This document shows positions 50,289-52,253 of a DNA stretch of 64,000 nt, in pieces (position 1 is the first letter of the stretch; every line of letters starts with the position of its first letter). A model generated the notes under the pieces. It was not told the origin of the DNA. It made no database searches and saw only the letters and a list, made by a program, of their open reading frames with translations. Where the stretch lies: assembly GCF_056712565.1 (NCBI RefSeq), contig NZ_CM160072.1. One strand, given 5' to 3'. The position numbers and the translations under genes are program-made.

Positions 50289-52253
50289 TCAGGCGGCGGT
50301 GTTCGCCATACGTTGTTCGCGGTTTATCGCCTGCAAGGCGGAGACATCAACAATCAGTGCCACGCTGCCGTCGCCAAGAATGGTCGCAGCAGAAATGCCG
50401 GGGACTTTGCGATAGTTACTTTCAAGGTTTTTAACCACAACTTGGTGTTGACCAATTAATTGATCCACCAGCAAGGCGTAGCGGCGACCGCCACTTTGTA
50501 AGATCACCACAATTCCCTGGGTAGCTTCGGTTTTCGCGCCCGCGACGTTGAACACTTTCCACAGTTCGACGATAGGCAGATATTCACCCCGCACTTCCAG
50601 CACCCGCTCGCCGCCGGCCAGTGGATGGAGATCGGCTTCACGGGGTTGCAGTGATTCCATAACAGCATTCAGCGGCAGAATGAAAACTTCATCCGCAACG
50701 CGTACGGACATGCCGTCGAGGATGGCCAGCGTCAGCGGCAGTAAAATGCGGATCGTCGTGCCAGTACCCTGCATCGACTGGATCTCGACATGACCGCCCA
50801 TCTCCTGGATATTACGTTTAACGACGTCCATGCCGACGCCACGCCCGGAGACGTCGGTGACCTGCTCCGCCGTGGAGAAGCCAGGGGCAAATATCAGCAT
50901 CGCAACTTCGTCGTCGCTCATGTTTTCGCTGACGGTCAGACCTTGCGAGGCCGCTTTTGCCAGAATTCGTTCACGGTTTAGCCCCGCCCCATCGTCGGTC
51001 ACTTCAATGCAAATGTTGCCGCCCTGATGTTCGGCAGACAGAATTAAATTTCCGACGCTGTTTTTACCTGCAGCGAGCCGTTTTTCTGGCAGTTCAATAC
51101 CGTGATCGAGGCTATTGCGTACCAGGTGGGTCAGCGGGTCGATAATGCGTTCAATCAGGCTCTTGTCGAGTTCAGTAGAACTGCCCACCAGCGTCAGTTC
51201 TACCTGCTTGCCGAGTTTTCCCGCCAGATCACGCACCAGCCGGGGATAACGACTAAAGACATATTCCATCGGCATCATGCGAATCGACATCACTGATTCC
51301 TGCAAATCACGGGCGTTACGTTGTAACTGCCCCATGCTGGTAATCAAATCACCATGATTAACCGGGTCCAGTTCGCTGGAACGCTGGGCAAGCATGGACT
51401 GGGTGATGACCAGCTCACCGACGAGGTTAATTAATTGATCAACCTTTTCTACCGCTACACGGATGCTGGTGGATTCACTGCTGCGCGTCGTTTTTTCCCG
51501 CTCCACGCGACCGATTGGCGCTTGTTCGGCTGCCAGTTTAAGCATTGGTGGGGTGGATATTTTTGGCGAGACGTCTACTGTTTCAAAGGTAATCTGATCG
51601 GCTTCAATCACAAAACAGAGTACCGCAGTGATGTCATCTTCGGCGATGTCGTCCGGTAATATTGCCGAGAGAGAATCCGCCCCTTTCACCACGTCAGTTA
51701 ACGTTGTCAGATGCCCCAACTCTTCTTCCAGCAGGTCGACTTCGCCGGCCTTCAGGCGCGAAAGGATAATTCGTCGCGGTGACTGACTACGACTCTGCTC
51801 ATCTTGCGGTTCACTTTTGGCAACCACACTTAATCGGGTCACTGCGGATGGCGTTTCGCCTTTCGCTTCTAATGCCAGTTGACGTAAGGCCTGGCAGATA
51901 TAATTGAAGCTGGCGGCATCCGGCTCTTGCGACTGTTTATAAGCGTCGAGCTGTTCTTGCATGATGTCCTTCGTTTCCAAAAACAGATTGATAATGTCGG
52001 TGTTGAGTTGCATCTCACCTCGTCTGGCTTCATCGAGCAGGTTTTCCATCAGATGCGTGGTTTCCTGCAAAACGCTGAAGCCAAAGGTTCCTGCCCCTCC
52101 TTTGATCGAGTGGGCAGCCCGAAAGATGGCATTCAACTGTTCGGCATCTGGCGCTTCCGGCTGCAAAACCAGCAGATGCTGCTCCATATCAGCCAACAGT
52201 TCGTCCGCTTCATCAAAAAATGTCTGATAAAAATCGCTTATATCCATGCTCAC
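50289..52253 (-). CDS. cheA: Chemotaxis histidine kinase CheA
   Basis: Start taken at GTG 52253 (654 aa, [20 protein letters not shown]); in-frame internal ATG at codon 98 (51960-51962) corresponds to the CheA-short start. Confidence 0.95.

Follow-up and report, generated by a model that had tools for sequence, protein, structure and literature searches.

The internal start codon for CheA-short in a cheA gene identical to that of the Escherichia coli type strain

The cheA gene of the window, by which we mean the whole stretch of 64,000 nucleotides analysed here, almost certainly carries start(S), a second in-frame initiation site that gives a CheA-short (CheA-S) of 557 residues alongside the long form CheA-L. 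The site is already known, and the analysis confirms that the Escherichia coli type strain retains, intact, this textbook example of a single gene giving two proteins. Its position and frame, its identity with the K-12 site, its conservation and its constraint at the nucleotide level can all be established directly from the sequences compared below. It goes beyond chance because it is exactly colinear with the annotated start(S) of K-12 and because it is conserved at the level of nucleotides. The features on which the reading is built are the following.

50289..52253, minus strand: cheA long form (CheA-L), GTG start, 654 amino acids plus stop, RefSeq WP_001362840.1 in NZ_CP033092.2
51960..51962, minus strand: start(S), ATG codon 98 of cheA, initiation codon of CheA-S (sequence read, K-12 alignment, PMC7696710)
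50289..51962, minus strand: reading frame of CheA-S, 557 amino acids plus stop, open from start(S) as far as the usual stop codon
52110..52112, minus strand: His48 codon CAC, 5′ of start(S) and found in CheA-L only
52258..52264, minus strand: Shine-Dalgarno sequence GAGGTGA of start(L), overlapping the motB stop codon

According to the minus-strand read and the list of open reading frames, the cheA frame extends over 654 codons, from a GTG at 52253..52251 to its end at 50289, and the translation of CheA-L opens V(M)SMDISDFYQ. The stop codon TGA of motB (52260..52258) lies just 5′ of this GTG, and the anti-Shine-Dalgarno pairing of start(L), of -7.2 kcal/mol, is the best among all in-frame starts of the gene. 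A sequence-only reading of this DNA had placed an in-frame ATG at codon 98, counted from the GTG at 52253, in the context DIM-QEQ; on the minus-strand read both its coordinates and its context proved exact, the codon beginning at 52253-291 = 51962 within K-D-I-M-Q-E-Q. As its start falls after His48, CheA-S has no phosphorylation site: it is devoid of residues 1–97, His48 included, and retains the end of P1 together with P2–P5. The CAC at 52112..52110 is, by the established numbering, the codon of the His48 autophosphorylation site. This histidine is invariant in the Enterobacteriaceae sequences aligned below (81/81), and structures of the P1 domain have been solved, e.g., 1I5N, 2LP4 and 6S1K.

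The 2.2-kb cheA region matches that of the type strain of E. coli, ATCC 11775 (NZ_CP033092.2), with 100% identity, and shares 95–99% identity with nearly all other complete E. coli genomes. It belongs to a locus whose gene order is flhDC-motA-motB-cheA-cheW-tar-(tap remnant)-cheR-cheB-cheY-cheZ-flhBAE. In the RefSeq (PGAP) annotation of ATCC 11775 the short CDS at 50289..51962 is absent and only the long cheA is given, whereas the curated MG1655 record gives both CDS; the missing isoform is thus an annotation gap in the genome record of the type strain.

The comparison with K-12 carries most directly on the identity of the site. At the protein level, CheA aligns with CheA of MG1655 without gaps, with 646 of the 654 residues identical. 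At the DNA level, the ATG of the window aligns with position 1975033 of MG1655, that is, the first base of NP_416402.2, and no difference between both sequences exists from -123 to +56 around start(S). The MG1655 RefSeq entry for this gene (b1888) contains two CDS, a long one at 1973360..1975324 and a short one at 1973360..1975033 (NP_416402.2; 1674 nt, 557 amino acids plus stop). The sequence-only reading had also held that the internal-start arrangement is conserved in this DNA, and had named an alignment with K-12 as the test by which it could be refuted. The gapless protein alignment and the identity of the DNA around the codon bear it out, and the test itself went in the reading's favour, codon 98 being the annotated start of the short CDS in MG1655.

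In the literature, CheA-S has been described as “initiated at codon ATG-98”, and the CheA-M98L replacement, which eliminates CheA-S, also makes CheZ lose its polar localisation (PMC7696710). Moreover, CheZ-F98S is unable to bind CheA-S, which tethers CheZ to the receptor array (PMC7696710). Other papers agree that CheA-S is devoid of the phosphorylation site, that it stimulates and anchors CheZ, and that it forms dimers, either with another copy of itself or with CheA-L (PMC1447658, PMC3676780). The passages of PMC7696710 that deal with start(S) credit it to Smith and Parkinson (1980) and to Kofoid and Parkinson (1991); the mapping of codon 98 used here is that of the K-12 annotation and of papers citing the original mapping work. 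What the sequence-only reading had stated of E. coli, a short CheA made from Met98 without the phosphorylation site, agrees with the 557-residue CDS of MG1655, with PMC7696710 and with the position of the start 3′ of His48. No cheA entry was found in the text of the Ribo-RET preprint (Meydan et al.) or in the PIRT-Seq supplements. Under the BW25113/BL21 conditions of such profiling to date, expression of class III flagellar genes is poor.

Conservation around start(S) was considered at two depths. Within the species, 5378 complete E. coli genomes carry the region, and 5371 of them share the 60-mer spanning -30 to +30 without a single difference. The window version of the adjoining 60-mer (codons 107–126, including codon 117) is shared by only 251 of 4939 E. 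coli genomes, so that cheA is monomorphic at the start and polymorphic beside it. Beyond the species, with each species represented by a single genome, scanning for CheA residues 2–260 with six search peptides yielded 80 Enterobacteriaceae loci from genera that include Escherichia, Salmonella, Citrobacter, Enterobacter, Kluyvera, Kosakonia, Lelliottia, Siccibacter and Atlantibacter. In all 80 species the aligned codon 98 is ATG and codon 1 is GTG (80/80 each), amino-acid conservation being somewhat favoured by ascertainment in that one of the search peptides, ETKDIMQE, includes Met98. Synonymous sites are free of this bias because the search patterns are degenerate.

The 80 cheA ORFs, four of them truncated, were aligned by codons together with the cheA of the window, giving 81 sequences, and pairwise synonymous differences at codons for the same amino acid were set against the number expected for this amino acid over the whole gene (observed over expected, O/E). 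Early stops in cheA were seen at loci L010, L036, L061 and L073, after 374, 128, 560 and 446 codons, respectively; one of these loci is that of Citrobacter koseri NCTC10786. The alignment defines a further feature.

51933..51995, minus strand: suppressed synonymous variation at codons 87–107, centred on start(S), the global minimum of the gene

Over these codons O/E is 0.37–0.38, whereas for the gene as a whole the median is near 1.05 and the 5th percentile lies at 0.74–0.79. The minimum falls there whatever the number of codons over which the scan is made, and in 5000 column permutations the minimum was never reached (0/5000). The second-deepest dip comprises codons 1–8, that is, start(L), and no other marked dip exists in cheA. 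The same picture is obtained in bins of 15 codons, where codons 91–105 have an O/E of 0.39, codons 1–15 one of 0.58, and all others at least 0.79. At the level of individual codons, TTT91, TTG92, GAA93, GAA100, CAG101 and AAA106 are each invariant in the 81 sequences.

Two elements can be distinguished immediately 5′ of the codon.

51967..51971, minus strand: Shine-Dalgarno sequence AAGGA of start(S), lying in Lys95 AAG and Asp96 GAC and followed by a 4-nt spacer, CATC
51973..51986, minus strand: near-invariant upstream block CTGTTTTTGGAAAC, codons 90–93 and AC of codon 94

The cheA frame contains 49 in-frame ATG, GTG or TTG codons, 20 of them ATG, so a lone in-frame ATG is weak as evidence. 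The pairing of AAGGA amounts to -5.4 kcal/mol, a moderate Shine-Dalgarno that ranks codon 98 only seventh among the 49, and hence the case for start(S) rests on homology and conservation and not on the motif. The strength of the Shine-Dalgarno alone was tried as a discriminator and rejected, in view of this rank and of the higher score of Met81. Furthermore, and this is a minor new point, the AAGGA at start(S) is, as judged from the alignment, nearly specific to Escherichia. Lys95 is encoded by AAG in only 7 of the 81 sequences, namely four from Escherichia and three from other lineages, where silent AAA-to-AAG changes produced an AAGGA of -5.4 and -5.2 kcal/mol, respectively; the remaining 74 read AAA GAT ATT, leaving an AAAGAU of -3.3 kcal/mol.

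The upstream block behaves differently from the Shine-Dalgarno sequence. CTGTTTTTGGAAAC varies only at the third position of codon 90, a codon that is CTG in 80/81 sequences, and its TTT, TTG and GAA are each found in 81/81 despite 2-, 6- and 2-fold degeneracy. We consider it a candidate U-rich enhancer or standby site within the initiation region of start(S). The segment from -50 to +30 has an AT content of 0.60, compared with 0.47 for the whole gene, and in 20 diverse sequences it is predicted to be far more accessible than its flanks. A tentative proposal, which we put forward as a possibility and hold to be rather less probable than its opposite, is that the conserved determinant of internal initiation at start(S) among Enterobacteriaceae may be the U-rich block CUGUUUUUGGAAAC together with the downstream GAACAG and UAUAAA, instead of a canonical Shine-Dalgarno. 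The pattern suggests that the start(S) of Escherichia would be a strengthened version of a conserved core devoid of a canonical Shine-Dalgarno. If this were true, the CheA-S:CheA-L ratio would be predicted to have risen in particular lineages, and the tethering of CheZ with it; the fact that most Enterobacteriaceae do without AAGGA constitutes a small lead on how this ratio is set.

Among the other explanations of these data, the one that best survives, unlikely as we judge it, is that codons 87–107 are constrained not by start(S) but by another overlapping element, be it an RNA structure, a target of an sRNA or of an RNase, or an antisense ORF. It is true that synonymous constraint does not name its cause, a caveat that Meydan et al. 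express for other internal starts, and that a plus-strand ORF of 88 amino acids (51961..52227) overlaps the region. Against this, the synonymous minimum has the mapped start at its centre, and its sole counterpart in cheA is at start(L). Moreover, no promoter-like site was detected on either strand (sigma-70-like promoters, 51700..52400), no Rfam family was found within cheA, and the region is predicted to be open. The antisense ORF in particular was rejected as the source of the constraint, since it covers codons 9–98 and yet O/E is 0.9–1.3 at codons 16–90. It runs antisense to the part of cheA that encodes P1 and owes its ATG to the palindromic CATG of start(S), and it is probably not a gene, given that cheA has no synonymous constraint across it.

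Far less probable still is the idea that Met98 would be merely a structural residue of P1, its ATG being kept for the sake of the protein without serving as a start in the present strain. Met98 does lie within a fully conserved segment of the protein, and 19 further in-frame ATGs exist in cheA. Nevertheless, constraint on the protein leaves unexplained the invariant synonymous positions (TTT, TTG, GAA, GAA, CAG and AAA, 81/81) and cannot account for a gene-wide synonymous minimum centred on codon 98, and the initiation region is, base for base, that of K-12, where M98L abolishes CheA-S.

Finally, there is very little chance that another internal codon is the actual start or an additional one: Met81, the best example, has the strong Shine-Dalgarno-like GAGGTGAG before it (anti-Shine-Dalgarno pairing of -6.5 against -5.4 kcal/mol at Met98) and is kept in 80/81 sequences, but GAGGTGAG leaves a spacing of only about 2 nt to ATG81, too short for normal initiation, and codons 76–86 show no synonymous dip (O/E about 0.9). 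In addition, both the K-12 annotation and PMC7696710 name codon 98 only.

Returning to start(S) as the origin of the constraint, a mechanism can be proposed in which ribosomes would load directly within cheA, on an open stretch rich in A and U for which only weak structure is predicted, and in which the moderate AAGGA four bases 5′ of ATG98 would assist this internal loading. The 557-residue product would begin partway into the P1 phosphotransfer domain, beyond His48, and would be able to dimerise and to join receptor arrays because P2–P5 are kept. Following the literature, CheA-S would then bind CheZ and thereby concentrate phosphatase activity at the array. By analogy with the work on K-12, we infer that CheA-S is synthesised in the present strain and that it plays the same role there. 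The partner is encoded in the window.

44697..45341, minus strand: cheZ (phosphatase), intact, 214 amino acids, with Phe98 present (...WDDWF98AD...)

Other observations concern the surroundings of cheA. All that is left of tap between tar and cheR is a frameshifted remnant some 150 nt long (47762..47913, minus strand), which opens MFNRIRISTTLFLILILCGILQIGSNGMSF and is then out of frame, while tap is full-length in MG1655; the strain is therefore without the Tap (dipeptide) chemoreceptor. The uspC-flhD intergenic region (~54774..56340) carries no annotated insertion element in ATCC 11775, and MG1655 has IS1H upstream of flhD (8504..9271 of the MG1655 locus, L002). This site is known to give rise to differences in motility among strains. 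Matches above the Rfam gathering score were obtained for C0465 in the tar-cheW intergenic region, on the strand opposite to the che genes (49668..49745, plus), for MicL (37470..37777, minus), for the SraC/RyeA and SdsR/RyeB pair (2185..2329, plus/minus) and for ES036 (33492..33534, plus), all of which are known sRNAs of E. coli.

The closest known system is the start(S) of K-12 cheA itself. Codon 98, the 557-residue product and the AAGGA with its 4-nt spacer are all equal, and so is the context, a motA-motB-cheA-cheW operon with an intact cheZ further 3′. The difference from the CheA of K-12 comes down to eight amino acids, all of them 3′ of start(S), one being D117N in P1. Codon 117 (51903..51905, minus strand) is AAT, Asn, here and Asp in K-12; of the 81 Enterobacteriaceae sequences, 73 have E here and 7 have D, the present strain being the only one with N, and Asn117 sits in the portion of P1 that CheA-S keeps. 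At the nucleotide level, a synonymous CGC-to-CGT change is found here at 51239..51254 (minus strand) of cheA, where K-12 gives an exact match. Beyond the species, most genera other than Escherichia have AAA GAT ATT before ATG98, in contrast with the AAG GAC ATC of Escherichia. The presence of both ATG98 and the GTG start in 80/80 species is in line with the co-expression of CheA-L and CheA-S across Enterobacteriaceae announced in the title of McNamara and Wolfe (1997, J Bacteriol 179:1813), as it is cited in PMC8745638 and PMC3676780.

In a broader sense, cheA resembles infB, with its IF2 alpha and beta forms, clpB and mrcB, in which one mRNA also gives two in-frame products and a Shine-Dalgarno-like sequence is located inside the coding region. 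The likeness extends to the raised synonymous conservation near the internal start, which Meydan et al. (2019) described for these three genes by the same kind of 15-codon analysis, and in this respect start(S) constitutes a clean positive control for the detection of internal starts through synonymous constraint. infB, clpB and mrcB differ from cheA, in turn, in the gene concerned and in its function.
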